DNA of 64,000 nucleotides from a virus (IMGVR_UViG_3300020193_000005:32001-96000), one strand, 5' to 3'; numbered from the stretch's first letter, positions 3,001-58,637 are shown. Translations and numbers: made by a program. Notes: generated by a model not told the origin, from the letters alone.

Positions 3001-6000
3001 ACCGGATCCCCGGGACTCGATGCATCCGCCGCCGAGATAGCGAGAAAAACCCCGCAGGGAAGGGTCGTTCAAATTGCCATGACCCCCGTAAAGAACGGAG
3101 TCCCGGGACAAACGAAAATTTGGTGGGTCAAACCATTGGACGACGACGGCAACGCAGTGGAGATGAGCGACTGGACGAAGGAAAACGTGCCCGGTCCCGA
3201 CGGTGCAAGAACGCTAACCGACCAGTTGGCGATGAACGATCCGAGATTCGTGGATCCCGCGGTCGCGTGGAGGGAGGTGTCCGATTGGCTCAAATCGGAA
3301 TTCGGGGATTCTCCGATTCTGGTCGGATACAATTCGGCCAACTTCGACATGCCGATCGCCGAAAGAATGATCGACGACCGAGATCTCAAAATTGGTTGGT
3401 TCGACGTCATGGTCCTCGCGGATCAGGTTCTGTACGCGGAAAGCCAGGCCTTCGACGACCTTAGCAAGATTTCCGTAGATAGAAGGAAATCCGGTCGGGT
3501 CGTACCCGGTTTCGCGGCGGGAACCGTGATTAGCATGGCCGGGTTTTCTAAGCGTCATAAAGCGAACCGAGGTTCCAGACTGATATTCGGACCCGCCAAC
3601 TTTCATCCGGTACTCGACGGCAGCGGGAAGCCCACGTTCAAGCCGGACGGCAAACCGAAGATGCAACCTAAGTTCAGGATAAACCTCGAGAGTCTCAAAG
3701 AGTGGGCCGGGGTGAAAACACGAAGAGCCGCCCACGCCGCCGACGTCGACAACGACGTCACGCACAGGGTGATGCTAGCCCTGACCGAACATCAAACGAA
3801 ACGCGGCAGGGCTCTTCACATGTTCGACAAAGACTTGCGAAATCAATTGGAAAGATACCTACGGGAAGAGTACGAATTCAGGGCGAGTACGCACGAAGCG
3901 AGGAAAAACCAGGGTTCTTTCTTCGGATTCAATTCGCCCAGAGCCGATAGCGGCGGCGCGAGACCGAATGAACCGGCCGACGTCGGGGACGCTACGACCG
4001 GTTACGCCGAATCGTACGGAAATGTCGTCGGCTCTCGGGAGACCGGGAGAAGAGTTGTGGGTAGACCGTCCGTAAGGGTAATCGGCGATTATCCGGGATT
4101 GCCGTTTTACGTCGTCTCCTCGAACGGGGAGGAAACAATCTTGATAGGACCGGAATTCTGGACGGACGGAATAGACCCGGACACGAGAGAACCGTTACTG
4201 CTTAGAAACCAGAAAGCTCTGATCCCGATGATCGGACAAGCCAGAAAATCCGGACGCGGTATTCAATTCGTCTACGGGAGGCGCGACGACGGATCACCGG
4301 TCAACTACGAAATATTCGCCCTCGAACTGGTGCCCGACGACGGCATGACGATGGAGGAGGCGAGAATAGCAACCGAACGAGATCGAAGAATCAGATTTAG
4401 TCTTGCCGGAACCCTAAGAAACGGAATGTCGTTTGAATTTTCTTTCAAGGACATAGGCAATCCCGACGCTCCACCGCCCAGAGCGAGCGAATACGTTCCA
4501 ATGACGGGCGAGGAAGTTTCGGGAGTCACGGACGCGATTCTCATGACTCCGGCCCAATACTCCGATCAGTTGATGAGAAAACGCGTCATTGCGTTGCGTA
4601 ATAGTCGTAGCGGGGGCTCCGGGTCGTCGACGTCGGGGACCGATTCCGGCGCGATGTCCGGTTTGACGAATCGCTACGGCGGTTCGGGGGGATTGGAAGC
4701 GTGGATACCCGACGAGAAATATAAGTCCTTCTCCTCCATGGACGAATCTCAGCTAAGAGCGATAGTCGAACGAACCAGGAGATCCGTGAACGATTTGATT
4801 CTCGCCGACAAGCTGAGAGGAGTCGCCGTCAACGAGGCGCTCGACAGGCTGAGAAACGCCGAGGCGGTTTTGGCACTTTCGCGCGGTCCGGTGATCGACG
4901 ACGCCGGTTTCTCCGTTTCGAGAGGACCCGACGGAACCGTTTCCGTTTCCGGATTCACGAATTTCTCTCCGTTCAAAGCGAGATCGTCCTACGCGTTGCC
5001 GACCGGAAGGAGTCGGCGAAAGGAGATGAACAAAAACGCGCAAATATCCCTGAAATTCGACAGGGAGATCGAGAACTCCCCCAAGGGAATGGCTCTCAGG
5101 ACTTTGGCGAGAAATTTGCGAATGGATCTTGACGAACTTGGATCTCGCCTCGAGTCCCACGATTTCGGCACGTATTCGGACGCCATCTATTCGTCAGAAA
5201 TGAGAAGGAACAAAAAGCTGTTCGATAACGGTTCTCTGACGCCGGAAAACTCTGGATTGTTCCTGCCGAGAGGTGCGAGTCGAATCGAAATGACCGCGAG
5301 AATGTCGAGCGCCGCTTCCTCCATCGGGTTGGGTTTCGGCGATTCCGGAGCGATGGCCATAGAAGGACCGTACACGAAAGACACCTCGAAATACGCGGGA
5401 ATGACCGACGACGAGCTGATCGACTCGTGGAACAAAACGCTTGCCGACCTGTTCGGCGTGACGGTGGAGGGAATTTCGCCGGAACGGATCGCAGAAACGA
5501 GCAGAGGTCGTTACGGCGACAGAAACTTCAACGCCAGGGCTCATTTGATCAAATCCCACCTGGAGGCGATAGCGAGCGAAATACGAAGAAGATTCTTCGC
5601 CAGCGAGGAAGGGAAAGCCGCGATAGATCAAATCCTCGAGGAAGGAAACGACTCCGGCGCCATGTCGTTGGATCCAGACAATAAACCGTTCTCGGGATCG
5701 TTGTGGCTGGATTCGAGACTACGGGAGATGTACGGAAGTCGCTGGCAAGAGATAGCCGCCGGGATAGGTAGACGATTTGCCAACTTCGGCGACAGGAATT
5801 GGAGCGACCCGACGGACGACGACGCGGTCGATCTTTATCACTACGCGGCCATGCTGCAACACGACGCTGTCGTGAGCGTGATGAAATCGGTCTCTGGCGC
5901 GGAAGATCGCTCCGAACTTGCGCGGAGGCTTACGAACAGCGCGGTGGGCGTAGTTGCTTTTATCTCGTTGCAAATACCGCTGACGACGGAGCAGATAGAG

Positions 6001-7041
6001 GATCAGATACAAAGAGGACGAATGATATCCAACATGCGAGAGCTCGCGGCGCTTGATCCGTACTCCAGGGTGGAGGCGATGATCGAAAAACGAAACGCGG
6101 AGATAGTGCAGAGAGTGATGGACGCAAAGAGGAGCACGCTGACCCCCGAGGAGTTTTCCGATTGGTACAAGGGAGTCATCGAAAGACTGGCCAGAAGCGA
6201 GACGACCTTGGCCGAATCTCCGGAGGGGTTATTCGGAGAGCCGGGGGATCAAGAAGCCCTGGATCAATTCATTGATTTCTACGAAAAAGACGCGGGAGTC
6301 TCCGGGAGGACTGGCGGAACCGACGACGGGGATTCCGGGAAAATGAGCAAGTCCTCGCGCCGTTCTTCGCCCAAAGCCGTTTACGATGCCAGGAGGATCT
6401 ACGGAGAGACTCCCGAAGAGATAGCCAAGCGACTCGGAATTGGAAAGGAAAAAGTACTGGAGCTGGAACAGCGATACGTCGACCAGGTCAACGCCAGAAT
6501 ATCCGCCGCGATTGATATCAAGAAAATGAAACTGAACCGCGAGAACTATTGGCCGGTGGAAGGAGTTCAAGAAGGCGCCATAAATCGAGTATACGATGAC
6601 GACACCTCCGTAGCTTTTTACACAATGTTTGACACGCTTCTGGGGCGAAGGAGCCGTGGCGGTCACTGGTGGTCTCCGCTCAACAAAGAAGGCGTGGCAA
6701 TTACCGAAAGAGAACTCAAGGGGTACCTCGCTTATCTTTCCCGGGTCGTCGACGTTTTGGATGATGAATACAAGGATCAGGAAGCCGCGAATTTGTTCAG
6801 GAGGAGCATAAAGATTCTTTCGGAAACTCTCAAAGACGGTTCGTACGGCGACGTCACTGGTGACTCCGGGGCTATGCGCAGGAACTTCGTAGAGCCCAGA
6901 TACGACATAAAACCACATCAGGGGGGGTGGGTCATCATAGACACGAAGAACAGAAACGCCATATCCAGCAGGGTTTTTAGCGACAGGCTCGAAGCGCTCA
7001 GGGGCGCGAAGCGAATGGACAGGGGGGAATCCGTCAATTAG
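1..7041 (+). CDS. Giant multidomain putative polyprotein A, 5' truncated. Contains sigma70-r4/LuxR-like and Fis-like HTHs, WYL domain(s) and a DEDDh exonuclease
   Basis: The frame is open from base 1 (no stop before the ATG at 16), so the gene probably starts upstream. HTH: LSDQEADLLRRRFDG..LEESARRM..VRRMEQLALRKMR. WYL: PLSFAY..KRSVVP..LFLRAFDPNRNEAREFRLDRI. Exo: FDVETTG/VGYNSANFD/AHAADVD. Eight DSGAM-type motifs. Confidence 0.9.
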   Translation, partial: RKLNGMDPSSDNRVGRSTIERVVSRSAIGLSDQEADLLRRRFDGELLEESARRMRMDKNAVRRMEQLALRKMRDFIVAAEKFENEADSGAMRRGSGGTAADADRPKGRRFPGRRARKTPGFTIPEMVESLSDSYGSDMSRSDIIAAAVLMRIRRSMTDKIDYLLAKGARSRRFSALADEITKADAVYKDGSTTGSAFVKTVFGSSAELKKLIQRRANRIDEVKDVDGIVNARTAVTLEEVGGDVREAAQKLGIDPKVVERRAIAHSIIAQAIATPETLKIASQIDSQFAYGILSPKQKTLIKLWLAGFSPEEIAETLNMTRADAWRDLGRAVRRMSMGNPEWVSEKNRRTIASVDLASDEAGVFSELTLSDGSKHRNYLSKSPIGSGASGAMARAEVVSVATDAGEESYVMVPARGDRNPSSFSLFPLRTRNEDLIYEAVAAEASGMLNSGLFARIVTDESGDQKLFAGSLGKNSIKTLSEIGTVNERTPFVTSLASDERYGKALLAKYDDLRNVLSDTPFSENLGVDDRRLSRLSEISEKIRNSAAVTPEEIVVMDSILSEIDDSRRSAIRRLPHDFDEETTDSFVNAADDRRFSYAENDGGKTVPYAKRMLGLGSPNAREFYLRVGKDGKLYKWNHPNNLENDIGSWADSAVGEEFIPSRDDVRAIAYDSTGVTRSLVGDGDSGAMSLPGEGTEYREDDNEVVIISDGISEASIGGAAYLAIGQNKPLSFAYYKKGSGWEKRSVVPRDLVRGVYKAVKRDDGSTVFVFHKADAPKGYLFLRAFDPNRNEAREFRLDRIGGIGNLTSQPKSTNAAPSGTPQGNTPTGSTPPKQVFPKQIFTRAGKVGQATVWVDQHPVRPSARQSAYEKTIVVADAPVAGYLDEALKEIGEGSFLEGYQGDASVVLSVLMDALGDEKHPLHDRANKYMLAMESKKLGKLLGRTAYRKSGLQGPPLRRRAKPWGGDRGNTKLADFESWTDPQQMYDWARTGDYVLFDVETTGSPGLDASAAEIARKTPQGRVVQIAMTPVKNGVPGQTKIWWVKPLDDDGNAVEMSDWTKENVPGPDGARTLTDQLAMNDPRFVDPAVAWREVSDWLKSEFGDSPILVGYNSANFDMPIAERMIDDRDLKIGWFDVMVLADQVLYAESQAFDDLSKISVDRRKSGRVVPGFAAGTVISMAGFSKRHKANRGSRLIFGPANFHPVLDGSGKPTFKPDGKPKMQPKFRINLESLKEWAGVKTRRAAHAADVDNDVTHRVMLALTEHQTKRGRALHMFDKDLRNQLERYLREEYEFRASTHEARKNQGSFFGFNSPRADSGGARPNEPADVGDATTGYAESYGNVVGSRETGRRVVGRPSVRVIGDYPGLPFYVVSSNGEETILIGPEFWTDGIDPDTREPLLLRNQKALIPMIGQARKSGRGIQFVYGRRDDGSPVNYEIFALELVPDDGMTMEEARIATERDRRIRFSLAGTLRNGMSFEFSFKDIGNPDAPPPRASEYVPMTGEEVSGVTDAILMTPAQYSDQLMRKRVIALRNSRSGGSGSSTSGTDSGAMSGLTNRYGGSGGLEAWIPDEKYKSFSSMDESQLRAIVERTRRSVNDLILADKLRGVAVNEALDRLRNAEAVLALSRGPVIDDAGFSVSRGPDGTVSVSGFTNFSPFKARSSYALPTGRSRRKEMNKNAQISLKFDREIENSPKGMALRTLARNLRMDLDELGSRLESHDFGTYSDAIYSSEMRRNKKLFDNGSLTPENSGLFLPRGASRIEMTARMSSAASSIGLGFGDSGAMAIEGPYTKDTSKYAGMTDDELIDSWNKTLADLFGVTVEGISPERIAETSRGRYGDRNFNARAHLIKSHLEAIASEIRRRFFASEEGKAAIDQILEEGNDSGAMSLDPDNKPFSGSLWLDSRLREMYGSRWQEIAAGIGRRFANFGDRNWSDPTDDDAVDLYHYAAMLQHDAVVSVMKSVSGAEDRSELARRLTNSAVGVVAFISLQIPLTTEQIEDQIQRGRMISNMRELAALDPYSRVEAMIEKRNAEIVQRVMDAKRSTLTPEEFSDWYKGVIERLARSETTLAESPEGLFGEPGDQEALDQFIDFYEKDAGVSGRTGGTDDGDSGKMSKSSRRSSPKAVYDARRIYGETPEEIAKRLGIGKEKVLELEQRYVDQVNARISAAIDIKKMKLNRENYWPVEGVQEGAINRVYDDDTSVAFYTMFDTLLGRRSRGGHWWSPLNKEGVAITERELKGYLAYLSRVVDVLDDEYKDQEAANLFRRSIKILSETLKDGSYGDVTGDSGAMRRNFVEPRYDIKPHQGGWVIIDTKNRNAISSRVFSDRLEALRGAKRMDRGESVN
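2160..2412 (+). other. WYL domain within polyprotein A
   Basis: AI.....LSFAY.......R.V.P..L....YLFLRAFD..R.E.R.FRLDRI matches the WYL signature. It starts about 35 aa after the DSGAM at 2050. Confidence 0.8.
2977..3780 (+). other. DEDDh (DnaQ-like) 3'-5' exonuclease domain within polyprotein A
   Basis: ExoI YVLFDVETTG, ExoII LVGYNSANFD, ExoIII AHAADVD. Confidence 0.85.
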
Positions 7042-7692: not shown

Positions 7693-9717
7693 ATGGCGTC
7701 AGACAAACAGGCAACTTTGAAAATCGACGCCGACGGCAACGTCATGAGTTGCGCCAATGGTGCGATGACATCCGAATGCGGATACAAGGCTGGTTCTCTG
7801 GTTTGCGGTAAGTGCGGAGCGATGGCGGTGGAAGTCAAATACGGGATGATGCCGCAGGCCCAGGGATTCGAATGCAAGGCGAGCGGGAAGACGGTCATGG
7901 AGGCGTGCGAAGCTTGCCCGGGCGGTTGCGCCCCGATGGGGATGAAGCAAGAAGAAATGCCCGAAGAAGTTCTCGCCATGTTCAAAAAGAAAAAGCGGAA
8001 GAAAAAGATGGGTGCCGATGCCGAGGAAAAAGCCGCAGTACGGGCTTACGGCGACGTTTACGAAGACGACGAGGAAGAGGAAGAGGAAGAGGAAGAGGAA
8101 GAGATTGAGGACGGCGAAGAGGTCGAATACGAAGACGAGCCAACCCTTGCCGGTATGAGAGCTCCCGCTCCAGAGATGCAAGCCGAAGAGAGCGAGACTC
8201 CCGAGATGCAGGAGGAGGAGGGCGAGGACGAGGATCTCGTCGAGTCTCTCGCAATGGCCAGACCCCCCATGAGGAAGCGCAGAGCACCGATGATGCCTGC
8301 CCGCAGACCGATGAATGAGGAAGACTCGGAAATGATGCCTGCCCGCAGACCGATGAATGAGGAAGACTCGGAAATGATGCCTGCCCGCAGACCGATGGAT
8401 GAGGAAGACTCGGAAATGATGCCGGTCCGCAGACCGATGGATGAGGAAGACTCGGAAATGATGCCGGTCCGCAGACCGATGAATGAGGAAGACTCGGAAA
8501 TGATGCCAGCCGCCCGATCCATGCGGATGCCGGAAGAGGATGAAGAAGAAATGCCCGACAGATCCATGATGAGAAATCGTCGTCTTGCGACCATGGGATT
8601 CAAGGACGGCGAATTCGGAAATACCCCGTTCGTATGCTCAATCGAGCGCAAGGTTTATCCGGGAAACGCAAAAGTATGCGAGAACTGCCCGGGTGGATGC
8701 GTATCGGAGGGCGACATGCCGGCCCTTCTCGAGATCGAAGGAATCGCGGAGGACACTTTCGGGGGCAAGGTCCTGGATTCGGGATACTCCGACAGCGCGG
8801 ACGTCTTCGTGGTCGACATAGAACGCAAGGACGGCAAGCCGGTCGAGGCGTTTTTTGACGGCACCACAGGGGAATGTATGGGATGGCATCTTCTCAACGA
8901 AGAGGTCATGCAAGTCAAGTCCGCTTTTGAGGCTCCGCAAATGGTCAGTTTCTCGGACGCGGCGGAGATAGCCACCAAGAGCATCGCGGGGGACGTCGTC
9001 TCGATAGAAGCCGACCTGTTCGAGGGTTACGACGCCTATGCCGTGGAAATAGAGGGAGTGGACGGCAAGTCCTACGACGTGTTCGTGTCGCTTGACGGAG
9101 AAATACTCGGCTACGACACCTACACCCAGGAAGAGGCATCGGCGATCGAGTCGGAGGCGGCCGAACTCGCCCTCAAGAGGGCTCACGACGAGGTCGAGCG
9201 TAAGGAGATGGCGAGTAACGGAGAGGCCATGGACGACGGGGAAATGCCGATCAAAAACTCGGCGGATCTCAGGAACGCGATCATGTCCTGGCCGCGTTCG
9301 GCCAATAGGGACGCCGCCAAGCTTCATATCATGAGACGAGCGGCGGCGCTCGGTCTCGAGTCTTCGTTGCCGGCGGATTGGGTCGCTCAGGAGCTCGAGC
9401 AAGAGAAGTCCGACGCCAACTTCATGTCCTCTCTTCTTGAGTTCGAGATGATCGAAGCCGAATCCTCGGGAGACGATCCGGAGAGAATGGCCGAGATCTA
9501 TTTCAAGAAGATGTTCAGCGAGGAACGCAGGGGCGAACTCGCTAAGCGAGGAATGGCTCTCCCCGACGGTTCATATCCGATCGAGTCGGAAGAGGATCTA
9601 AAGAACGCGATTCAGGCGTACGGAAGAGCCAAGGACAAGGACAAAGCCAAGGCACATATTATGAAGAGGGCCAAGGCACTCGGCAAGGACGATCTAATTC
9701 CGGACAACTGGCGTTAG
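7693..9717 (+). CDS. Head-associated or scaffold-like protein. Cys-rich N-terminus, acidic tract, 14-aa tandem repeats, PepSY-like region and two C-terminal GSYPI..DL.NAI..GRA domains
   Basis: AAGGAG RBS. Repeated C..CPGGC motifs. Duplicated domain GEAMDDGEMPIKNSADLRNAI / GMALPDGSYPIESEEDLKNAIQAYGRAKDK, a type I recall from actinophage capsid-maturation proteins. Confidence 0.7.
   Translation: MASDKQATLKIDADGNVMSCANGAMTSECGYKAGSLVCGKCGAMAVEVKYGMMPQAQGFECKASGKTVMEACEACPGGCAPMGMKQEEMPEEVLAMFKKKKRKKKMGADAEEKAAVRAYGDVYEDDEEEEEEEEEEEIEDGEEVEYEDEPTLAGMRAPAPEMQAEESETPEMQEEEGEDEDLVESLAMARPPMRKRRAPMMPARRPMNEEDSEMMPARRPMNEEDSEMMPARRPMDEEDSEMMPVRRPMDEEDSEMMPVRRPMNEEDSEMMPAARSMRMPEEDEEEMPDRSMMRNRRLATMGFKDGEFGNTPFVCSIERKVYPGNAKVCENCPGGCVSEGDMPALLEIEGIAEDTFGGKVLDSGYSDSADVFVVDIERKDGKPVEAFFDGTTGECMGWHLLNEEVMQVKSAFEAPQMVSFSDAAEIATKSIAGDVVSIEADLFEGYDAYAVEIEGVDGKSYDVFVSLDGEILGYDTYTQEEASAIESEAAELALKRAHDEVERKEMASNGEAMDDGEMPIKNSADLRNAIMSWPRSANRDAAKLHIMRRAAALGLESSLPADWVAQELEQEKSDANFMSSLLEFEMIEAESSGDDPERMAEIYFKKMFSEERRGELAKRGMALPDGSYPIESEEDLKNAIQAYGRAKDKDKAKAHIMKRAKALGKDDLIPDNWR
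8290..8499 (+). repeat. 42-bp tandem repeat x5 encoding MMP(A/V)RRPM(N/D)EEDSE
   Basis: Unit ATGATGCCTGCCCGCAGACCGATGAATGAGGAAGACTCGGAA, five near-identical copies. Confidence 0.95.
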
Positions 9718-9728
9718 GAGTAGCCGCC

Positions 9729-12700
9729 GTGATCGGCGAAGAAAATAACGACCGCAAGGAGAACCCGAGAAGCAGGGTGTACTTGCCGTTCGGATTCAGG
9801 AAAAAATCCATCCCGAATCCCTATACGGCACGCGACGCCGACCTGGACAGACTCGTCCTCGAAGGGATACCGACCGTCAATCTGGGTCGCGGAATTCCGG
9901 ATCCGACGCCGTTCGGCGCGGATTCGGGGCTGATGCGGAGCCAATCGCGCAGGCGCTTGGCCAGAACTATCGGAAGATTGATTCCGAAAAATCGATCCGA
10001 CTCCGGGGCGATGGCGGACGAAAAAAAGCCCACGACCCCCTCGAGGAACGAAACTCCCTACGGCGGAGATCAGACGATAATCGAGCAAGTGGTCAGCGAG
10101 GCTCGTTTTCAAAAAGATTTGGCCTCCAGGGGGGAATGGAAGGAAATTCACTACGACCACTACGACTGGTGGGCTTACCCGATCGATAGGGGAAGTGCCC
10201 AGTACGGTGATTTCTACAACGTCGCCGGCGAACCCGTAAAGAGATTAAGAAACAACATGGATTTCATAAAGGCGCTCACGGATACGATTTTGGTTCAAAC
10301 CAGGGCGCTCGGATACAACCTTTACGAAAAAACTTGGATGCAGGATCCCGAGTGGGAAAAGGGTCAGGACTGGGGTCTTGCCTATCCCACGAGAATATGG
10401 AAGATGACCAGATCCGCCCAAATTTTCGGTTTGGAGGAGGAATTTGAATCGCTGATAAACATGCAAAAGGTTTTGCAGGAGAGCGGAATCCGATTCAACC
10501 ATCGCAAGTATTGGGAAAGCCCCGGAACGGTGGACGATGTTCCGCCCATCGAGAGTTACGACGAGCCGAAAACATACTTCCGTGACTACTCGTTGGGCGC
10601 GAAACCGCGAACCCCATACGGAGAAGGAGGGGGTTCGTCCCCGTATTATCCGACGGAATACGATGAATGGGAGGCGGGAATAGACACGGAGCCCAGAGTC
10701 GGCGAATTGGAGCCCGACGACTTCGAGTCGGCGGTCGCCGGGGCTTTCGAGTTGGCGGATTTACTCAGGGAAAAATCCGAAATCGGCGACCTGGAATATC
10801 CGTACCACCACATCTCGCCGGATCGGAGGGAAGACATTGCCGATACGATAGATTTCGCGCTCACCCTGATCCCGATCGTCGACGGAGACGGATTCGACAC
10901 GGACAGAAAAGAGACGGCCGACGCCCTGGAAAAATTCGTAGTCGGCGACGATTTGTATCGAGATGACTCCGAGCTGTTGGACGAATTGATTTTACAGTTG
11001 AGAGATTCGACATACGACGGATTCTTTTCGTTCGACGAAGACAGCGGGAGGATGTCCGTTGAGCCGAAAATGAATAGGTTCAATGATCGGGTGACGACTT
11101 TGTACAACGAAGGCAAGACCCGCGAAGAGATCGCCAAGGAGCTCGACCTAAGCGTCCGTCAAGTTGATTACCTCCTAAACAAGCTCTTCGCCGGCGGGTT
11201 GGCGAAATCCCGCCACACACAGCGGGAAAAGACGGAGGAACTCATCGAACGGGTGGTGACCATGCACAACGAGGGGAAACGCACCACGGAAATCGCCGAG
11301 GAGTTGGGGCTCACCAACAACAGGGTGCAAAGATACCAATACATTGCGAGACGACGGGGATTGCTGACGACGCCCCGGAAACGCACTACGGCAGAAACGG
11401 ATGAGTTGATGAACGAGGCCGCGAGGTTGTACAACGAGGGGAAACCCCGGATGGACATAGCGAAGGAAATGAATCTTCCCGGGGAAAAAATTGGCACTCT
11501 TCTGCAACGAGCGAACGAGCGCAAGCTGATTCGCGACTACAACCCTCAAGGATTGGGAAAATTCGGGAAAACCACACTGACCCCCGAAAAAATCTCCGCC
11601 GCCGCCGACGGGTACAGGCAGGGAAAGACGTTCGCGCAGATCGCGGAAGAACTCGCGGTCACGGAAACCGCCGCCCGCAAACTCGTTGTGCAGGCGAGAC
11701 GCTTGGGGCTGGACACGGGCTCCCCTCGCAGGCGAACTCCGTCCCAGATGGAGGAATTGCTTTTGGAGGTGGCGGTCAGATACGAGGAAGGAAAGACATT
11801 CGCCGAAATCGGTCAAGAACTGGACGTTACTCCGTCGGCTATCAGGGATATGGTCGACAGGGCCGTCACGCTCGGTTTGATTCGGAGACGCGAGCGAACG
11901 CGCAGCGACACGGACGAGTTGATGAACCAGGTCATGGCCAAGCGCAAGGAGGGCAAGACCAGACGAGAAATCGCGCAGGAACTGAACGTCCCCGAAAATC
12001 GGGTCGCATACTTGGTCCAGAGGGCCAGGTTGATGAAAGCATCCGAATCGACTTCGACCGACGGATTCGACGGCGAGACGGGGAGAATGTCGAGAGAACC
12101 GGAGAGAGGCGATCTGGTCAGATTCGGTAGAAGCTCAAATAATCGGTACGTAGATGAACCCGGATCGCTCGGCAGGGTGGTGAAGGTCGCCCGTGACGGA
12201 ACCATCTCCGCGGATTTTGGAAATGGTCCGATAAAGCTGATCCCCGGCGAGGACGATTTCCTAGTGATCCCGAGACAAGTCGACGCGCTGTACGAGCTGA
12301 CGGACAACGACGGCAACGTGATGTACCTACCGGTCGAGGACGTGACGTACCCCAAGATCACCCGCGCCATGGAGGAAGCGATGAAAGCCGGGTACAGAGA
12401 AACAGGAATCATCCGAGGAAACATGCGAACATTTTTCGACGAAGCCACGGGAACCTTCAAGACATCCAGAATCGAGTCGAGGATTCTCAACGCGGAGAAC
12501 ATTGCGCCGGAAACGACGGCACCGGTTCCCCCTCAACCCGGATACCCCGAGTTCACTCGAATCGTCGGTACCGACCGAGCGCGAGGCGGGGGCGTCGACT
12601 CCGGCGCGATGGAACTGCCGGACGGAATAGACGAGGAACTTGAGGATTACGTTTACGACGATCCGCTGTTCGGTCCATCCATAAAGCATCCTCTCTTTTT

Positions 12701-15700
12701 TTGGATAGCCCCGATCACCCCGGAAGTGACCGACCTGATAAACGCGTCTTTCGCGCAAAAACGAGCGTCCGCGGATGAAGCTTTGGCAAAAAAGAATTGG
12801 GGCAAATACATATACCTGCACGAACGCCCCTACCGTATCGACGCCTTCGAGGACGTCATGGACGAGATGACGGATCAGGAGTACTGGAGCCGACTCTCGG
12901 ACATATGGGTGGACAGCGAGAACATCGGGGCGCAACCGAGTCGCTGGAGAGAGCTGCTACTAAGCGACCGCGGTTCGCGCGAGTCCTTCATGAACGAGAA
13001 CGAACGCGCGGAACTGGCGAAATTGCCGCAAAAGTTCACCGTATACCGCGGTTATTCGGAAAACGATCAGGAAGAATTCGGGATGTCGTGGAGCACCGAC
13101 GCGGAAGTGGCGGAATGGTTCGCCAGAAGATTCGCCAGAGACGACGAAAAGATCATCATGGAGAGCTTGGAGATCTCCAAGGACGAAGTCTTCGCTTACG
13201 TCACGCGACGTGGCGAGGACGAAATAATACTGGACATACGCAACGTCGTGGAGAGAACGGCGAAGAAACAACAGTTGCCACGGAAACCAAAGACGAGAAT
13301 ACCCTCCAAAAATAGGAACCTGACTCCCCCCGGCGACAGCGGAGCGATGAGTTCGCTAAGCAAGGAACAGATCGACGAAATGACGCAAAGATACAAAGAC
13401 GGAGATTCCGTTCTGGAGTTGGCTAACGATTACTCAGTAACCCAGGGCACCGTCTACTATCACCTGAGAAGAAAAGGCGTCGCCAGAAGGCCGGTCGGAA
13501 GGCGGAAAAAGCCCGGGGGATTTTCTGCCATAAAACGAAGATTGAAGGATTCCCTGGGACAAATCGGACTATTCGCCGCCTTCTCCAACGATCCGCAAAA
13601 AACTCTGAGATCTTCCAACCAAATGAAAACTTACTTGCTTTCCGAACCCGTCCGAACACCGGACGACCTACATCCGGACGAGTTCGCATTGCGTCCGAAT
13701 TTCGTTCGAGCCGCGATAGCCGCCGGATTGGGACTATTCAAGGCATTGAACCATAAAACCTTCAAAGTTCAGGGTCCGATAGCTAGGGAATTCACGGAAC
13801 TAATGGTCGGACCCAAGATGGTCAACGACGCCATCGGAACGACGTACCCGACGCTCCAGGAATTGGGGGAAATATTCGCGGCCAACGCAATCGTCAGGGC
13901 GCGAATCAGGTCTCTTTTCGGAATCAATGATCCGACCGCGCTCGCGTGGGCGATCCAATCGGGAGCTCCACTCCGCGAAGGCGGAGAGAGGATATTCGAC
14001 ATACCCGAATCGCCTCCGTACACAAGAAACCTGGTGGGGGGTGGCTATGTCTATTTCGAGGGAATCGACAATAGAAGACCGTTCGTTCTATCGGTCATGG
14101 CGAATATGCCCGAAGCGGTGAGGAGCAAGTTGTACTGGGATAGTGACAAGATTCCGTGGAGCAAGAGAGACGTGCCCATAACTGTGGAGAAGGGGGAACT
14201 ACCAGGCGGTAGGAAATACGAACGATCGCCCGTGGACGAAGTTTTACCGCTTTTTGTTCCCGGTCACGATACGAGTCGATTGGATTTAATCAAGACGAAT
14301 CACTCTTCGCCGGACGGAGCGAGGCTGGCCCAATACGTGGAAATGGCGAAGGAAGAAATACGACAGTGGGCGGCGGATCACGACGAATGGGCCAGGAGAT
14401 GGGCACAAAGCGTATATCGAATCATGAGCGAAGCTGGTCTGAGCGACGACGAAATAGCGGAAGTGATAAACAGGGACTGGTTGCAAAACATAACTTTCGG
14501 AATCGGAGATGCGGGAGACATATTGCAAAACGCCATGTTTATGGCACTCCTTATGACGAGATCCAAGTTCGCCCCGGTGGTGCATCTAGAAAACGGATTT
14601 GACGATCCGAATTTGGCTCTTCATGAGTTCTTTCACGTCCACCTCGGTCAAGGCTTCACGAGACACGGCGAGTACGTCGCCTTCAGGGGACCCGCGGAAG
14701 TTTACGACTCCTGGTATCCCCACACGCTATTCGCCTTAACCTTCAACAGCGCTTTTTGGCAAAACGTAGTGAAAGAGTCGGGAGGAACGGAAGAGCTCAG
14801 GAAAGAAATGCGAAAAGCCGTCGAAAAAATGCTCGCCCCGGAGTACGACTCGGACGTTCGTCTTCTTTTTGAGCTTTTCCCGGAATATCAGCGCGCCTCG
14901 GCGGAAATCAGAAAGAAACTCAACGAAATGATCATGGCGGAAATAATTGAGGACTTCGAAGACTCCACGGGATTCAGGAGGGTAGCGGGAATGCCCAGAG
15001 CAACCGAAATAATAAATGCTCCTGGTTTCAGGATTCCCAAAAGACTATGGCCGTGGGGTTCCAGCTACGGAGGCAAGGAAAGAATCGCCGACGTCCAGGG
15101 TAAAACATACGCGAAGTTCGAGGAGAGAATTTTCGGGGTTCCGGATCCGACGTCCGGCGACGGCGGGAATACGGGGAAAATGTCGCTGGAAAGAACTCCG
15201 AAATTCGACGGCGGTCACAGTAGTAGGGGAAGGGGAACTCCGTTGGGTGACGGAAAGGACGTCGCAATGAGGGAGGTCGCCGACAGCGCGATCGTCGAGC
15301 TGGTCGGCAACCGAGGAAGTAGCTCGCTCACGACCCTAAGATTTCTCGGACCCTATAGGGCTGGAAGCAGGGTCGTGATGCTTGCGAGGAACGGCGAGTT
15401 ACGTGGCGTGCCGTTGAAGAACGAAACCAGATCGGCGATAGCCAACGCCCAGAGGAACGGAGCGAGATTCGTCGTGGGGGACATGCCCGACGTGGATTCT
15501 CAGTTCGTGGACTTTTTGGAGGAGATCGGAGCCGACTACACGATTTATCACGCCGGAAACTCCCCGAGATTCCGTCCCGGATCGAAAATCCCCGGGACGA
15601 ACGCGGGAACATTGTCCGAGACGAGAGCCGGCGAATCGGATTCTCCGAGTAGGTTGGAGACGATCGGAAGAAACTTGGCCACGGCGGCCGCCGAAGTGGT

Positions 15701-16271
15701 CGCCGCCGGTTTCGAAGTCAAGGTGTACGGAGGGCGATCCGACTCCCAGTCTGGCTCGAATCCGATCGGCGGGATGCTCTCCGCCCTGAACAAAATGAGG
15801 GAAAACCCCGATGCTCCTACGGGAAGAAAATTGGCGGGGTTGACGATGATGATGAGCGCTATGGAAAAATACCTGACGGATTCAACGAACCAACGCCTAG
15901 TCGTCGTCTCGAGGGGAGATCGGGTCGTCGGGGCGTCGTTGATCAAATTCCCGGAAAAGGACTCCGTGGCCGAACTCAGATACGCCGGTTCGTTGTCTCC
16001 CGTGAGGGGGGTCGGTAGCGCCATGGTCGCCGAAATCATGAGGCTCGCGGCGGACTCGGGCAGATCCATAATCGGAACTTCGTCTCAAGATTCGGTATCC
16101 TTTTGGAGAGGGGTCGGCGGGAAAGACGCCGATTGGGACGGTCCATATCGCGGAAATACGATATTTGAAATCGACGACGTGAGAAAGGTCGTCGCCGCGA
16201 TAGACGCCCGTCGCAAGGAATTGAGAGCCCAAAAACTACTAGGCACGACCGACGGGGGGAACCCTAGATGA
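9729..16271 (+). CDS. Giant putative polyprotein B (2180 aa). Order: leader peptide, OGFr_N/DUF1810-like, 6xHTH, DUF4314-like, ART-like, HTH plus HExxH, SLOG-like, GNAT
   Basis: AGGAG RBS before the GTG. Seven DSGxM-type motifs separate the domains. Motifs seen: HYDWWAYP, EGKT..EIA.EL repeats, YRG..MSWST..RGEDEII, HEFFH, FVVGDMPDVD, RGVGSAMV. Confidence 0.9.
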   Translation: MIGEENNDRKENPRSRVYLPFGFRKKSIPNPYTARDADLDRLVLEGIPTVNLGRGIPDPTPFGADSGLMRSQSRRRLARTIGRLIPKNRSDSGAMADEKKPTTPSRNETPYGGDQTIIEQVVSEARFQKDLASRGEWKEIHYDHYDWWAYPIDRGSAQYGDFYNVAGEPVKRLRNNMDFIKALTDTILVQTRALGYNLYEKTWMQDPEWEKGQDWGLAYPTRIWKMTRSAQIFGLEEEFESLINMQKVLQESGIRFNHRKYWESPGTVDDVPPIESYDEPKTYFRDYSLGAKPRTPYGEGGGSSPYYPTEYDEWEAGIDTEPRVGELEPDDFESAVAGAFELADLLREKSEIGDLEYPYHHISPDRREDIADTIDFALTLIPIVDGDGFDTDRKETADALEKFVVGDDLYRDDSELLDELILQLRDSTYDGFFSFDEDSGRMSVEPKMNRFNDRVTTLYNEGKTREEIAKELDLSVRQVDYLLNKLFAGGLAKSRHTQREKTEELIERVVTMHNEGKRTTEIAEELGLTNNRVQRYQYIARRRGLLTTPRKRTTAETDELMNEAARLYNEGKPRMDIAKEMNLPGEKIGTLLQRANERKLIRDYNPQGLGKFGKTTLTPEKISAAADGYRQGKTFAQIAEELAVTETAARKLVVQARRLGLDTGSPRRRTPSQMEELLLEVAVRYEEGKTFAEIGQELDVTPSAIRDMVDRAVTLGLIRRRERTRSDTDELMNQVMAKRKEGKTRREIAQELNVPENRVAYLVQRARLMKASESTSTDGFDGETGRMSREPERGDLVRFGRSSNNRYVDEPGSLGRVVKVARDGTISADFGNGPIKLIPGEDDFLVIPRQVDALYELTDNDGNVMYLPVEDVTYPKITRAMEEAMKAGYRETGIIRGNMRTFFDEATGTFKTSRIESRILNAENIAPETTAPVPPQPGYPEFTRIVGTDRARGGGVDSGAMELPDGIDEELEDYVYDDPLFGPSIKHPLFFWIAPITPEVTDLINASFAQKRASADEALAKKNWGKYIYLHERPYRIDAFEDVMDEMTDQEYWSRLSDIWVDSENIGAQPSRWRELLLSDRGSRESFMNENERAELAKLPQKFTVYRGYSENDQEEFGMSWSTDAEVAEWFARRFARDDEKIIMESLEISKDEVFAYVTRRGEDEIILDIRNVVERTAKKQQLPRKPKTRIPSKNRNLTPPGDSGAMSSLSKEQIDEMTQRYKDGDSVLELANDYSVTQGTVYYHLRRKGVARRPVGRRKKPGGFSAIKRRLKDSLGQIGLFAAFSNDPQKTLRSSNQMKTYLLSEPVRTPDDLHPDEFALRPNFVRAAIAAGLGLFKALNHKTFKVQGPIAREFTELMVGPKMVNDAIGTTYPTLQELGEIFAANAIVRARIRSLFGINDPTALAWAIQSGAPLREGGERIFDIPESPPYTRNLVGGGYVYFEGIDNRRPFVLSVMANMPEAVRSKLYWDSDKIPWSKRDVPITVEKGELPGGRKYERSPVDEVLPLFVPGHDTSRLDLIKTNHSSPDGARLAQYVEMAKEEIRQWAADHDEWARRWAQSVYRIMSEAGLSDDEIAEVINRDWLQNITFGIGDAGDILQNAMFMALLMTRSKFAPVVHLENGFDDPNLALHEFFHVHLGQGFTRHGEYVAFRGPAEVYDSWYPHTLFALTFNSAFWQNVVKESGGTEELRKEMRKAVEKMLAPEYDSDVRLLFELFPEYQRASAEIRKKLNEMIMAEIIEDFEDSTGFRRVAGMPRATEIINAPGFRIPKRLWPWGSSYGGKERIADVQGKTYAKFEERIFGVPDPTSGDGGNTGKMSLERTPKFDGGHSSRGRGTPLGDGKDVAMREVADSAIVELVGNRGSSSLTTLRFLGPYRAGSRVVMLARNGELRGVPLKNETRSAIANAQRNGARFVVGDMPDVDSQFVDFLEEIGADYTIYHAGNSPRFRPGSKIPGTNAGTLSETRAGESDSPSRLETIGRNLATAAAEVVAAGFEVKVYGGRSDSQSGSNPIGGMLSALNKMRENPDAPTGRKLAGLTMMMSAMEKYLTDSTNQRLVVVSRGDRVVGASLIKFPEKDSVAELRYAGSLSPVRGVGSAMVAEIMRLAADSGRSIIGTSSQDSVSFWRGVGGKDADWDGPYRGNTIFEIDDVRKVVAAIDARRKELRAQKLLGTTDGGNPR
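9816..9917 (+). repeat. Shared 34-aa N-proximal peptide, copy 1
   Basis: NPYTARDADLDRLVLEGIPTVNLGRGIPDPTPFG. Confidence 0.95.
11070..12035 (+). repeat. Six tandem divergent helix-turn-helix repeats (about 55 aa each)
   Basis: YNEGKTREEIAKELDLS, HNEGKRTTEIAEELGLT, YNEGKPRMDIAKEMNLP, YRQGKTFAQIAEELAVT, YEEGKTFAEIGQELDVT, RKEGKTRREIAQELNVP. Confidence 0.9.
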
Positions 16272-19500: not shown

Positions 19501-22500
19501 AAAGAGTAAAACAATTTATCGCCGCTTACAGAGCAGTCGACCCGAACTTTACCGATAACGATTTTTACGACATCATAGAATTGATGGCCGGAAGAGAAGC
19601 CAGATACAGGTTGCAACATCCGAATCGGCCGAGTCCACCTCGGGCATCGGCCGCGCCGAATAGAAATTTGATCGGTGCGCCACCCGCTCAAGCGCGACAG
19701 GCATCCCCGCCCCAGGCACCCCCTGCGCTGGGCGGAGGATTGGGTCCGGGCGGAACTCCGCCGCCACCCGGTGGTGGTGGTGGTGGTGGTGGTGGTGGTG
19801 GTGGTGGTGTTACGCCGTCGCCTGGAGGAGGCACGCCGTCGCCTGGTACGCCGTCGCCTGGTACGCCGTCGCCCGGAGGAGGCACGCCGTCGCCTGGTAC
19901 GCCGTCGCCTGGGGGCGGTACGCCGTCGCCTGGTACGCCCGCCAAAAAACCTCGCAAAAAAAGAACGCCGAAACCCAAGCCGGGCGCGCAAACTCCCCCC
20001 GCTTCGCCGACACCTGGCGGGCAAACTCCCCCCGCTTCGCCGACACCTGGCGGGCAAACTCCCCCCGCTTCGCCGACACCTGGCGCTACGCCGGCGACCC
20101 CTAATCAGTCGCCGCTGCCTCAAGGCGGATCACCCGTTCCGAGACCCAGACCCACGACTCAACGCCCGCCGCAGGCGAAGAGAACCGGTCCGAAACCTTC
20201 CTCAAAGGCGGATACAACTACGGTGCAGAAAGCCGGAGCCTTGTCTGCCGATATAGTACAAACGATAGCGGTCGGCGACCCGAACGATTCGCAGTGGTTG
20301 CAGAAATCTCTCGACTCGTTGGACTCCGACGATCAAGCCGCCTCGGATCATAGGGCAAGGGCCGTTCAGAAAGTCGATCGAGCGTTGGACGATGTTGTCG
20401 CGTGGGCGAACGGTCGGCTGCTGCCGAAACCGGTCGGAATCCATCCCCATTACCCCATACAAATAGTTGCCGGTCCGGACGACAACCCGGCCGTGCGAGA
20501 GCTTAGACAGTCGACCGGTCCAAAAGACTTGTTGGACAGAATGGATCGACTCGGATACATCGTTCTCGATACCGAAACGGCGGGTCCCGACCTCGAGATT
20601 CACGGCGGAGCAATATTCCATTTCTACGCCAAAAAAAGAAATCCGGACGGCACCGTCGAGGAGCTTGATCTCTACATCAAACCGACCGTCACTCCGGCGA
20701 TGCCAGTCGATCGCTATCCGGACGCTTTCGAAACCCTTCCCGACGGAACGAGGATAGCGCGACTCTCCGAGGAGTTGACGAGCGGTCCCCAAAAAATGCT
20801 CGACAGAGCCGAATACGACAGAGCCGTAAGCCAGGGAATCGACAGAACCGAAGCGGCGGCGAGAATAGCCGCGTTTTTGAATCCCGATATGCCGGTCGTG
20901 ACGATGAACGGAAACAACTTCGATCTTCCGTTGCTGGACGAAATGCTCGACGAAGGCAGGGCGGCCGGAACCGTCGACAACGACTTCGGGCTTATCGATC
21001 TAGCCAGCGTCGACTTGTTGGCGATAGGTCACAACCTTCTTCGGGGTCGCCACGAACGTCACGATAGAAATCGCAAAGTTGCCGACTTGGCGAGACGTCT
21101 ATATAACGGGGATAAGATCCCGAGCGGACCAGAACTAATCGGTCCGTGGATGACTTCCAAAATAGGATCTCCAAAAGGAAGCGTGGAAGGTTACAATCCC
21201 GCGACTGCGGATATAAAAGAATTTTGGTCGGAAGACGGAGTCAAACACTTCGTAGAAACCCTTCCGGACGGGACGAAAATCAAGGGCGAGGCCATGACGA
21301 TGCTCAAGACGAACAACAAATTGGACGCTCTCGCCAACTACGCGGGAGTCCGCGCCCGCGCGACGCACGACGCCAAGGTGGACGTGGGCAAAACCGAAGA
21401 AACGATGAGAGCACTTCTCGAGCAAGGCGAAATACAAGGAATGAGCAAATACGCCTTCGATCACGAGGCGGCCGCCAAGGCCCAGGAGGCGCTCGGAATG
21501 GGCCCACCGCAGGGAGGAACCCTAGACAGGAAACGTCCGGGAGACGTAAGAAAAGCCAAGGGGACGGCGCAGAGACTCGCCGGTGGTCCGGGAACGAGAT
21601 CGTCCCGGACGGACACCGATCTCGACTTGGAACAAGACGAAAGAGTCGACGCGTTCGCTCCGTGGCCGGATGCCGCCTCGCGGACGGGAATGTCGGCTAA
21701 CCCCAATCTCCAGGTCATCGAACCGCAAGACGGAATGACCTCCGCGGAGAAAAATGAAATGACTACGTTGCTGGAAAAGCTCGAGGGATTGGATCAAATC
21801 AAGCAAGTAAGAAAAGCGACGAACCTCACCCCGGAGGAGAGACAACGACTAAAAATTCTCCTGACCAAAGCCGCGGACGCCTACAAAAAAGCGAAAACTC
21901 GCATCAGTGATTCGCAAGGAGATTTGACCGATGACGAAGGAATCCGAGCTTGGTTGGCCCAACTTGCGAAAATGGAAAAATTCATGAAGGAAAATCCGGA
22001 TTTGTACAGCGAGGAGGCGATACAGCTGATGGTCGACGGCGTCATCAACGGGGCGGGAAACCTAACCCCGGAATCGCTCGTGGCGATGGAAAGACGCGTG
22101 AACGATTTGATTACGAAGCTCGGATATCAGGGAGAATTTTTTCAAGATATGGTCGCGGCTCATTTGTCCGTCGCGCTCGACAGGGCCGTGCGGGAAATGC
22201 GTCGCCGAAACCCGTCGCTTAGCGCGAACGAAATCCGCGAACTTCTAGGCATGGATCCCGACGATACTCCGTTGGTTGTGGCCATACTCGGCGACTCTGG
22301 GGCGATGCGATCGGCGCGAAGAATCGCCGGAACACGCAGAATCGACGATATCGCTCCAGACTCGGGGGCGATGCGATCGACGCCGGTAGTCGCCAGAAAC
22401 CCCGACTCCTCCAGAAAGACGGCGGAAAAGACGGCGTCGATCCTGGGGAGAGCCGAATCCGTCGGGGTGGATATCGACAGACAAGAAAGAGAAGTAGTCC

Positions 22501-57263: not shown

Positions 57264-58637
57264 ATGTCGGAAGACACGAGCAGACTCCGCGAGTTGCAGT
57301 CAGCGCTCCGCGAGAAGATGCAGCAAAACAAGGACATCGCGGATTCCTTCCGCGTTGACAACGGAGCGGTCGTCGTTACGACCGAGCAGAAGTCGGCGTT
57401 CGACAAGAACATGTCCGACATCCGCGAGATCAAGGGACTCATCGAGGGTCTCGAGTCGCTGAAGAACATTCAGGACTGGGGTTCGGCTCCGGTCGACGCT
57501 TCGGTCGCTGCTCAAGCAGCCGCCCATGCTCCTCAGCAGGCTCCCCGCCCGTCAAGCGTCGGACAAGCGTTCGTCGAATCGGTCGAGTTCAAGGCGCTCA
57601 ACAACGGACGCAACGGCGCGAACATGCCGTCGGCGTTCCAGTACCAGGGTGCCCTGACGGCCTACGGTCAGAAGGACATCTACACGGCGCTGCCGACGAC
57701 GGGTCTCGTGGCTCGCGCCGGCGGTCTTGATGACTTCGGCACGATCCAGCGCGATCCGATGGTCACCCCACCGCAGCGCACGAAGCGCGTCCGCGACCTT
57801 TTCCCGGTCCGTACGACTTCGGCCGCGGTGATCGAGTACTTCCAGCACATCGGCTTCACCACACCGGTGACCGGTGCCGTTGGCGCTGATCGCACTCGCG
57901 GAACCAACAACGCAGCCGCGGTCGCCGAGCGCACCAGCGGAGCGTTCACGTCCAAGCCGCAGTCGAGCTTCCAGTTCGTCGGTCAACAGGCTCCCGTTCG
58001 CACTCTCGCGCACTGGGAAGCCGCGCACCGCAACGTGCTGGCGGATGAACCGCAGCTTCGTTCGATCATCGACAACGAGCTCATGTACGGCTTGCGCCTT
58101 CAGGAGGACTCGCAGATTCTCAGCGGAGACGGCACCGGCGAGAACCTTCTCGGCGTGCTGAACACCCAGGGCGTTCAGGAATACTCCTGGTCGTCGGGTG
58201 CCAACGCTTCGGCGAACTCAAAGGCGGACACCAGGGCGGATGCGATTCGTCGCGCCGCTACCTTGGCGTTCCTCGCCTACTACGAACCAAGCGGCGTGAT
58301 TCTCCACCCCAGTGACTGGGAGAGAATCGAGCTGGCGAAGGACGGAAACGGTCAGTATCTCGTGGCGGTCTCCGTCGCGTTGGGCGGCGAGCCCCGCGTC
58401 TGGCGCATCCCAGTGGTCGAAACCCCGGCGATCCCGGTGGGTACGGCGCTGGTCGGTGCGTTCGGCACCGGAGCCCAGCTGTACGACCGCGAGCAGGCGA
58501 GCATCAGGGTCAGCGAGCAACACGCCGACTTCTTCGTCCGCAACGCAATCGTCATCCTGGCCGAGCAGCGCCTGGCGCTGGCGGTCAAGCGTCCGGAGTC
58601 GTTCGTCAAGGTCACGTTCGACAACGCGCCAGCCTGA
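57264..58637 (+). CDS. Major capsid protein, HK97 fold, with an N-terminal coiled-coil delta domain
   Basis: AGGAGG RBS at 57251-57256 supports the ATG at 57264. VRDLFPV, VRTLAHW, LADEPQLRSIIDNELMYGL..ED.QILSGDGTGENLLG, FVRNAIVILAEQRLALAVKRPESFVK. Confidence 0.96.
   Translation: MSEDTSRLRELQSALREKMQQNKDIADSFRVDNGAVVVTTEQKSAFDKNMSDIREIKGLIEGLESLKNIQDWGSAPVDASVAAQAAAHAPQQAPRPSSVGQAFVESVEFKALNNGRNGANMPSAFQYQGALTAYGQKDIYTALPTTGLVARAGGLDDFGTIQRDPMVTPPQRTKRVRDLFPVRTTSAAVIEYFQHIGFTTPVTGAVGADRTRGTNNAAAVAERTSGAFTSKPQSSFQFVGQQAPVRTLAHWEAAHRNVLADEPQLRSIIDNELMYGLRLQEDSQILSGDGTGENLLGVLNTQGVQEYSWSSGANASANSKADTRADAIRRAATLAFLAYYEPSGVILHPSDWERIELAKDGNGQYLVAVSVALGGEPRVWRIPVVETPAIPVGTALVGAFGTGAQLYDREQASIRVSEQHADFFVRNAIVILAEQRLALAVKRPESFVKVTFDNAPA

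Follow-up and report, generated by a model that had tools for sequence, protein, structure and literature searches.

A phage head-region polyprotein of exchangeable modules joined by lineage-specific junction peptides

Polyprotein B is encoded by an uninterrupted open reading frame (ORF) of a virus, at 9729..16271 on the + strand of the window, by which we mean the whole 64,000-nucleotide stretch 32001–96000 of the linear 109,136-bp virus record IMGVR_UViG_3300020193_000005; positions are counted from the window start throughout. The ORF starts with GTG, preceded 8 nt upstream by AGGAG, and specifies 2180 amino acids (aa). Comparison with related polyproteins shows, at the level of the sequence, that the modules of B are separable cassettes arranged around a backbone (tag … U3 … U7), and that the breakpoints coincide with, or lie no more than a few residues from, a short recurrent junction peptide. 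We consider it rather probable that B is a capsid cargo polyprotein which is directed by its tag, cut at its junctions and evolving by module exchange.

Results

A recurrent junction peptide divides B into units

The motif [D/E/N]-[S/T]-G-x-M splits B seven times, and placing a cut before each Met gives eight units, U1 to U8, of 68, 26, 347, 345, 174, 246, 611 and 363 aa, which together make up the 2180 residues (Table 1). An original prediction, made from the DNA alone, had arrived at exactly these sizes. It had read the borders as DSGxM, which is correct for five of them, the other two being the variants ETGRM and NTGKM. Both variants mark genuine module borders, since in relatives the homologous modules follow, at these places, a motif of the relatives' own. 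B contains five strict DSGxM sites against 0.02 expected, and seven sites of the looser motif against 0.11 expected. The giant ORFs of the head region together contain 27 strict sites, where 0.24 would be expected and 2000 shuffles gave 3 at the most; these sites are confined to ORFs A, B, C and H, and among the remaining ORFs of the 109-kb genome none of 200 aa or more has the strict motif. A single chain carries up to 13 junction sites, and the residue that follows the junction Met is S, R, T or A at 31 of the 33 sites of this genome.

The codons of the junction differ at every synonymous position (GAT and GAC; TCC, TCG and TCT as well as AGC; four Gly codons; GCG, GCC and GCT), so that the conserved and selected object is the peptide and not the DNA. 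The flanks of the junctions are predicted to be disordered: the last 12 residues of the U6 model have a predicted local distance difference test score (pLDDT) below 50, with no secondary structure past residue ~223, and the ends of the U3 model likewise have pLDDT below 50. The expectation that each interval would hold one module is mostly borne out, although U3, U7 and U8 each contain more than one. In protein H (6466 aa) a NUDIX domain (aa ~5887–6012) and a Zeta-toxin kinase (aa ~6204–6384; H aa 5887–6466 correspond to window positions 55133–56872) each lie inside their own DSGxM interval, and the one-module-per-interval arrangement therefore holds in H too.

Table 1. Units and junctions of polyprotein B, and copies of its tag in other polyproteins. 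Positions refer to the window unless another locus is named.
Feature	Residues of B	Position	Strand	Description or basis
U1	1–68	9729..9932	+	leader; ~35-aa tag shared by polyproteins A, B, D, F and H
Junction 1, DSGLM	from 65	9921..9935	+	motif search
U2	69–94	9933..10010	+	basic 26-aa spacer between two junctions
Junction 2, DSGAM	from 91	9999..10013	+	motif search
U3	95–441	10011..11051	+	backbone module, in every B-like relative
Junction 3, DSGRM	from 438	11040..11054	+	motif search
U4	442–786	11052..12086	+	array of six ~58-aa helix-turn-helix (HTH) repeats
Junction 4, variant ETGRM	from 783	12075..12089	+	motif search and relatives
U5	787–960	12087..12608	+	DUF4314/SH3-like accessory module
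Junction 5, DSGAM	from 957	12597..12611	+	motif search
U6	961–1206	12609..13346	+	ADP-ribosyltransferase (ART)-like module, then ~24-aa disordered basic linker
Junction 6, DSGAM	from 1203	13335..13349	+	motif search
U7	1207–1817	13347..15179	+	backbone module: HTH (unit aa ~1–50) and conserved ~480-aa core
Junction 7, variant NTGKM	from 1814	15168..15182	+	motif search and relatives
U8N	1818–~1982	15180..15674	+	accessory module
U8C	~1983–2180	15675..16268	+	joined to U8N without a junction; separate unit behind DSGSM in relative P0005
Tag copy in A		L001 17466–17669		sequence match
Tag copy in D		24175–24384		sequence match
Tag copy in F		30552–30758		sequence match
Tag copy in H		37772–37978		sequence match

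Modules are gained, lost and moved at the junctions

Fifteen other proteins with modules in common with B, 13 of which are B-like, came from a database search, 11 syntenic loci from a scan of IMG/VR guided by an alignment, and more from a profile search; ~20 related polyproteins were compared. A single-protein scan of IMG/VR with U7 found nothing. The syntenic loci have the order A-like, an ORF of ~550–600 aa, an a3-like ORF, B-like, C-like. All B-like proteins retain the tag … U3 part and most end in U7, and the content between and after these varies (Table 2): modules are present or absent, swapped (U5-U6 against U6-U5) or moved (U8N before or after U7).

Table 2. Module order in B and its relatives.
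Protein	Architecture
B	U2-U3-U4-U5-U6-U7-U8N-U8C
P0003 (90% identical)	without U5 and the sixth HTH repeat
P0005	~300-aa module for U2; 22-aa spacer for U4-U5-U6; U8C alone behind U7
P0009	U4-like-U5-U6-U7
P0008	X-U5-U6-U7
P0004	U4-X-U6-U5-U8N-U7
P0007	X-U6-U5-U8N-U7
P0006	U4-X-U6-U8N-U7
P0011	U4-U8N-U7
P0087	tag-U3-U7 only
L011–L015	tag-U3N only

The deletion in P0003 has its right edge in the linker that precedes DSGAM, and in P0005 the edges of both replacements, in the U2 slot and in the U4-U5-U6 slot, all fall at junctions. Among 90 end points of similarity between B and its relatives, which are not independent since the relatives are kin, 20 fall no more than 5 aa from a junction, where 3.6 would be expected and 5000 random draws never exceeded 13, and 57 fall no more than 30 aa from one, where 18.8 would be expected; the direction is unambiguous. 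Matches at the level of single units start at residue 1 or 2 of U5, U6 and U8. The original prediction had proposed such a comparison of orthologous loci, and what emerges from it is a variable order with indels that cluster at the junctions; an invariant order with indels placed elsewhere was not found.

Junction peptides differ between lineages and modules cross between them

At the same module borders relatives carry other peptides. We refer to DSGxM, the form in the window phage, as dialect I, to (D)-[G/A]-E-A-G-M (in short GEAGM) as dialect II, and to G-P-[V/A]-G-x-M (GPVGxM) as dialect III; the junctions of relative P0010 read [D/E]-T-G-x-M. Junctions of every dialect end in Met after small residues, and in each dialect the synonymous positions vary. 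A junction that is uniform within a genome, selected as a peptide and shifting in concert between lineages suggests one trans-acting reader. Since synonymous positions vary in all three dialects, a repeat or recombination site acting at the DNA level was rejected as an explanation of the junctions. The earlier notion of a cassette array thus stands as regards modules that are separable and exchanged, but not as regards an integron-like DNA site, the junction being conserved as a peptide only.

The modules of dialects I and II have diverged to very different extents. The backbone modules are 42–45% (U3) and 31–32% (U7) identical between the two dialects, with maximum-likelihood distances of 2.5–3.3 and 3.6–4.0, and the corresponding values for accessory modules are 71–83% and 0.24–0.53 for U5, 76–84% and 0.19–0.33 for U6, and 64–76% identity for U8N. 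Within dialect II, non-sister pairs are 63–76% (U3), 60–69% (U7) and 66–75% (U5) identical. Because U5 is merely 66–75% identical within dialect II, constraint alone does not explain its similarity across dialects; its divergence between dialects is no greater than within one, and a recent transfer of U5 is therefore required. B is not simply fast-evolving, as its U3 and that of P0004 are equally distant from a third clade (49% and 46% identity). The homology of U5 begins right after the junction Met (S-R-x-x-E-R-G-D-L) and fades ~10–25 residues before the next junction, and the junction itself is always in the dialect of the host lineage. Base composition per unit was uninformative as a sign of foreign origin, the G+C content at third codon positions being 0.60–0.72 with no outlier.

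A leader tag is shared with other polyproteins

The tag, NPxTAxDADLDRLVLEGIPxVNLGRGxPDPTPFG, occupies residues ~29–63 of B (nt 9813–9917). It is common to A, B, D, F and H; the other four copies are 74–83% identical to that of B in surroundings that are otherwise unrelated, and the tag is also present in the B-like proteins of relatives. We infer that it is a putative capsid-targeting signal.

Ahead of the tag most copies have K-[S/A/D]-L-G-P and, immediately adjoining N/D-P-x-T-A, R-[N/D]-M; in B the place of R-N-M is taken by S-I-P. K|SLG resembles the capsid maturation site of HK97, and the upstream sequence may constitute another cleavage code, by which the tag is trimmed or set free. As a second general code K-[S/A/D]-[L/I]-[G/P] was discarded: 10 sites against 4.4 expected amount to no overall enrichment, and the sequence is consistent only just upstream of the tag.

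The modules of B

U2 proved to be the basic 26-mer that had been read there. It is one of several short, strongly basic spacers of 17–26 aa that lie between two junctions, the others being residues 1908–1924 of C (22308–22358) and residues 722–743 of P0005. The U2 slot is filled by a ~300-aa module in P0005 and by a ~390-aa region in dialect-II relatives, so that in B it is an 'empty slot'. The spacers in general sit in slots where relatives have whole modules, and have the appearance of slots that were emptied or of linkers that were left over; U2 ends in R-L-I-P-K-N-R-S, which is similar to R-I-P-S-K-N-R-N in the linker that follows U6.

U3 consists of a helical N-domain (unit aa ~17–175), a disordered linker and a C-terminal helical bundle. 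The N-domain has many invariant residues, including HxxHYDWW.(Y/F)PIDRGS, and defines a ~160-aa family of 460 representatives, many of which are free-standing proteins of ~155–190 aa. U3 itself has no Pfam match. The OGFr_N/DUF1810-like label given to it in the original prediction is a weak lead: OGFr_N is matched weakly by two of 34 free-standing homologues of the N-domain (best E 0.002), and the chain 2jek (Rv1873), which we take to be the DUF1810 structure, aligns over 123 of its 140 residues, at a Z score of 6.9 that is within helical noise. Neither a Foldseek search with the U3 model nor a search of the phage's own genome with the DUF1810 model gave a match.

The six-repeat HTH array predicted for U4 is strongly supported by a match to Sigma70_r4_2 (E 9e-26). 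For U5 the proposed kinship with DUF4314 (PF14192) fails in a direct search, where it scores 14.6 bits (E 0.033), below the gathering threshold of 27, but is recovered through a segment of polyprotein A that is 51% identical to U5 over 63 aa (E 3e-15) and itself scores 47.2 bits against DUF4314 (2e-12).

We accept the ART-like reading of U6, on the strength of fold matches and of a conserved residue pattern. U6 belongs to phrog_4776 and carries the R / S-W-T / E-x-E pattern as YRG at unit positions 146–148, S-W-S at 160–162 and E-D-E at 203–205; among 37 sequences of the family G148 of Y-R-G, E203 and E205 are invariant, and S160, W161 and T162 are found in at least 90%. The model has a pLDDT of 89.6, and ~45 of its top 50 re-aligned PDB matches are ART-fold proteins, including Tpt1/KptA, ExoS, ART2.2, Vis, ParT, PARPs and the A subunits of cholera and pertussis toxin; these fold matches are modest (Z 3.5–5.8, best Foldseek E 0.03). 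The free-standing relatives of U6 form 65 clusters of ~230–250 aa, among them single genes in mycobacteriophages. The median start of these proteins is ~10 residues upstream of the Met that opens U6, and U6 has gained the 24-aa linker at its C-terminus.

U7 had been described as HTH plus HExxH. Its N-terminal HTH match is weak, but HEFFH (B aa 1632–1636, nt 14622–14636) is invariant in relatives, as is the GQGFTRHGEY that follows it, and we regard U7 as a candidate zincin.

The remaining labels, SLOG-like for U8N and GNAT for U8C, fared less well. For U8N, SLOG is a weak lead: the module has no Pfam match, and the clusters nearest to it by language model are DprA, YpsA and YAcAr, at 0.81–0.84, under the 0.9 trust level. 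U8N stands before U7 in dialect-II relatives, and is also found within the otherwise unrelated giant proteins P0016 and P0017. U8C has no match in Pfam, NCBIfam or PADLOC and no homologue of near-equal length was found; its R-G-V-G-S-A resembles an acetyl-CoA motif by eye only, and the GNAT label is unverified. Around residues ~1958–1997 of B (15600–15720), the sequence that corresponds to G-D-S-G-S-M, found ahead of U8C in P0005, is E-S-D-S-P-S-R in B and E-S-D-S-S-G-R in P0003; the U8N-U8C join in B is possibly a decayed junction. Searches of the PDB by sequence or profile yielded nothing usable for U3, U6, U7 or U8, and searches of Pfam, NCBIfam, PADLOC and PHROGs with U3N, the U7 core, U8N and U8C gave nothing.

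B lies among the head genes of a probable actinobacteriophage

The source is an uncultured tailed phage whose host is probably an actinobacterium, as judged solely by its nearest capsid relatives, those of Gordonia and Brevibacterium myophages (45–47% identity); CheckV estimates the 109,136-bp record to be ~73% complete. On the + strand a portal gene with a C-terminal Mu-F domain is followed by polyprotein A, two smaller ORFs, B, then C, D, E, F and H, and finally the major capsid protein, which has the HK97 fold, so that B is located between the portal and capsid genes. Polyprotein A has 3750 aa, of which the first ~180 are a Peptidase_S78 (HK97-type) prohead protease. The large ORFs downstream of B encode 2527, 956, 697, 2040 and 6466 aa, with three small ones (100, 189 and 287 aa) interspersed, and the interval from portal to capsid takes up ~61 kb of the 109-kb record. 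Gordonia phage Gray, the nearest cultured phage, has conventional individual genes in this interval, among them those for an RNA ligase, a VIP2-like ART and a 971-aa HTH protein; homology between the two phages from portal to capsid is limited to portal, protease and capsid, and a homology of B to these individual genes was accordingly rejected.

Several further features of the locus were noted. Directly upstream of B, 7693–9717 encodes a 674-aa protein with neither tag nor junction, whose C-terminal ~390 aa are 65–74% identical in all relatives, much above the conservation of the cargo; it has a weak PepSY match only and may be a structural head or assembly protein. The capsid ORF 57204–58637 is listed from a GTG, but an ATG 60 nt downstream (57264), with AGGAGG 7 nt before it, is the likelier start, and the ~170 residues that follow it resemble a coiled-coil delta/scaffold domain. 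ORF boundaries shift between relatives: C and D are two ORFs in the window phage, where 4 nt lie between the C stop and the D start (24170/24175), and in L007, and in dialect-III phages the N-terminal ~250 aa of C are fused with the whole of D in one ORF (L011 12511–17787, L013 12481–17766, L015 12559–16569). The S78 domain (L027–L030 compared with L001 15789–16400) is 82–87% identical between phages whose cargo backbones are 30–45% identical, and it heads a giant ORF of 3190–5469 aa in every genome where it was found.

Discussion

According to the account that we favour, the tag would load the polyprotein into the prohead and a phage-encoded protease would cut every junction, freeing the modules as separate proteins, namely the DNA-binding HTH array, the SH3-like module, the ART-like enzyme, the HExxH protein and others. 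These would then exit the capsid together with the DNA, to act on the host at an early stage of infection. Junctions that are in frame, unstructured and interchangeable would let any linker-to-linker recombination yield a functional product, and hence permit a cassette-like turnover. As to the cutter, we put forward the S78 prohead protease as a first candidate, tentatively and at somewhat less than even odds: it heads the tagged polyprotein A and is the only protease recognisable by Pfam in the head module, no other being found in A, C, D, E, F or H.

A number of observations weigh against this account. That B is cut, when, and by which enzyme, we infer. Searches of the capsid and portal proteins found no junction motif, so that S78 would need a second specificity. 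The catalytic core of S78 is 82–87% identical over 200 aa across the three dialects, with identical surroundings of the catalytic His and Ser, and such a nearly unchanged core is hard to square with the reading of dialect-specific P4–P5 residues. No homologue of U7, another conceivable cutter, was found in the complete 174-kb dialect-III genome G001, whose junctions number more than 12. Some module borders are unmarked: the U8N-U8C border and the border between HTH and core in U7 are without a junction. With regard to exchange, U6 shows a weaker trend than U5, and stronger constraint may explain much of its pattern; moreover, the unrooted U5 and U3 trees share their topology, and the case for exchange therefore rests on distances and not on tree conflict. 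Tree conflict had been considered as a proof of transfer, as an approximately unbiased test on U5 rejected the assumed backbone grouping, yet it was abandoned in view of that shared topology.

The points concerning S78 are at the same time those that speak for another protease, be it the HExxH module U7, an unrecognised module or a host protease, acting possibly after ejection. U7 belongs to the backbone of B and combines its invariant HExxH with a conserved downstream block, cleavage before Met by a metalloprotease would restore N-termini that begin with Met, and polyvalent proteins have been proposed to be released by metallopeptidases embedded in them (PMC5512222). We nevertheless think this rather unlikely, in that sequence searches of Pfam, NCBIfam and the PDB place U7 in no peptidase family, Pfam sees no further protease in the other giant ORFs, and the lack of a U7 homologue in G001 weakens U7 as a universal junction protease. 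That B is not cleaved at all, but is an intact polyvalent protein in which the motif serves as a linker element for docking to a head component, for threading during ejection or as a hinge, would agree with the unmarked borders and with the N4 virion RNA polymerase and some other giant virion-packaged proteins, which are described as unprocessed in that source (PMC5512222). A peptide-selected signal of five residues in disordered linkers, changing in concert at all the junctions of a genome, nonetheless suggests a single trans-acting reader, most simply a protease, and spacers of 17–26 aa between two junctions have no obvious use in an intact chain; we regard an uncut B as quite improbable.

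The junction Met could also mark internal translation starts, which would give separate proteins from one mRNA, or the relic starts of captured genes, the latter being what the original prediction had supposed when it spoke of start Met residues retained in the motif. Every junction does end in ATG, the sizes of the modules match those of free-standing genes, and the GGN-GAG-GCN codons of dialect II can look like a ribosome-binding site. Against this, a Shine-Dalgarno-like core lies 4–10 nt upstream of none of the 33 junction ATGs, compared with 28 of 377 other in-frame ATGs and nine of 14 gene starts; synonymous positions are free to vary whatever the dialect, and Shine-Dalgarno-like bases are missing from dialect III. 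Furthermore, the Met is invariant in all three dialects and also bounds spacers of 17–26 aa, which are too short for genes, and free-standing U6 proteins start ~10 aa before the U6 Met. Internal starts were consequently rejected, relic starts are not upheld either, and taken together this explanation is scarcely tenable.

In-frame capture of once-independent genes is still, as far as can be judged from homology, the more economical direction, because U6 and the U3 N-domain have many free-standing homologues of matching length. A more speculative view, which we hold to be unlikely, sees the junction as both processing site and capture device, with lineage-specific protease-junction dialects forming a peptide-level counterpart of the integron, by which tailed phages in general would build up and reshuffle their injected effectors. 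It would suffice to put some linker residues in front of the start codon of any free-standing gene to join it in frame, and a dedicated protease cutting just before the Met would return a native-like N-terminus.

The favoured account of B, as cut and injected cargo, has a precedent in the polyvalent proteins of phages and conjugative elements, for which the release of domains by proteolysis has been proposed (PMC5512222). As described there, these too combine unrelated effector-type domains in one giant chain (in their case ART, HTH, GNAT-type and metallopeptidase-type), are encoded among virion late genes adjoining portal-MuF, have mosaic domain combinations and are proposed to be delivered with the DNA (PMC5512222). 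Polyvalent proteins are recognised by 2–15 unrelated effector-type domains, and B has at least eight distinct modules; they are also recognised by an MPTase-type metallopeptidase hub, and here B has U7, whose HEFFH is invariant but which matches neither a family nor a PDB entry. Where that paper treats cleavage, cleavage sites, linkers and the prohead protease, it mentions no recurrent junction motif (PMC5512222), whereas the phage described here has a sharp junction peptide with lineage dialects, a shared tag and an S78-headed member, over ~61 kb. The prohead proteases of T4-type and giant phages cut head and ejection proteins at short motifs (PMC10052503). The internal proteins and Alt of T4 (gp21) and the ejection proteins of phiKZ-like phages (gp175/gp245, A-x-E) resemble B in having a short shared N-terminal prohead signal, a head protease with a short consensus and a preference for Ser at P1', and products that are ejected into the host (PMC10052503, PMC7411985). 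Those substrates are separate genes and undergo mainly propeptide removal, whereas B would release whole modules; here, moreover, the protease is of the S78/HK97 type and the motif is small-small-Met, a system known from its sequence. A literature search for phage polyproteins with prohead-protease sites brought up only the polyvalent-protein paper and the maturation work on T4 and giant phages.

More distant parallels can be drawn. Polyproteins made by RNA viruses of eukaryotes likewise are single products with units separated by sites for a viral protease, and these sites co-vary with lineage, but B belongs to a DNA phage and contains accessory modules with rapid turnover and not a replication core. 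Integron gene-cassette arrays similarly have ordered, interchangeable units that vary between relatives within a constant flanking framework; unlike them, the B locus has no integrase or DNA-level recombination site, and its units are in frame within a single ORF.

It is known that phages inject proteins, and giant polyvalent proteins have been catalogued, but their organisation, release and renewal are largely conjecture. What is added here for one polyprotein, by comparison of sequences, is a variable order, breakpoints at junctions, three dialects and the recent exchange of at least U5. The locus thereby offers a testable grammar, made up of a loading tag, a junction peptide, a constant backbone and modules that move between lineages. 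If the junctions are cut, a single motif would make it possible to predict from sequence which mature products arise from tens of kilobases of phage ORFs now lacking annotation, and dozens of unknown modules would be delimited for structural and functional study, including the ART-like and the ~160-aa helical families. Such a grammar could also suggest a route for loading engineered cargo into capsids.

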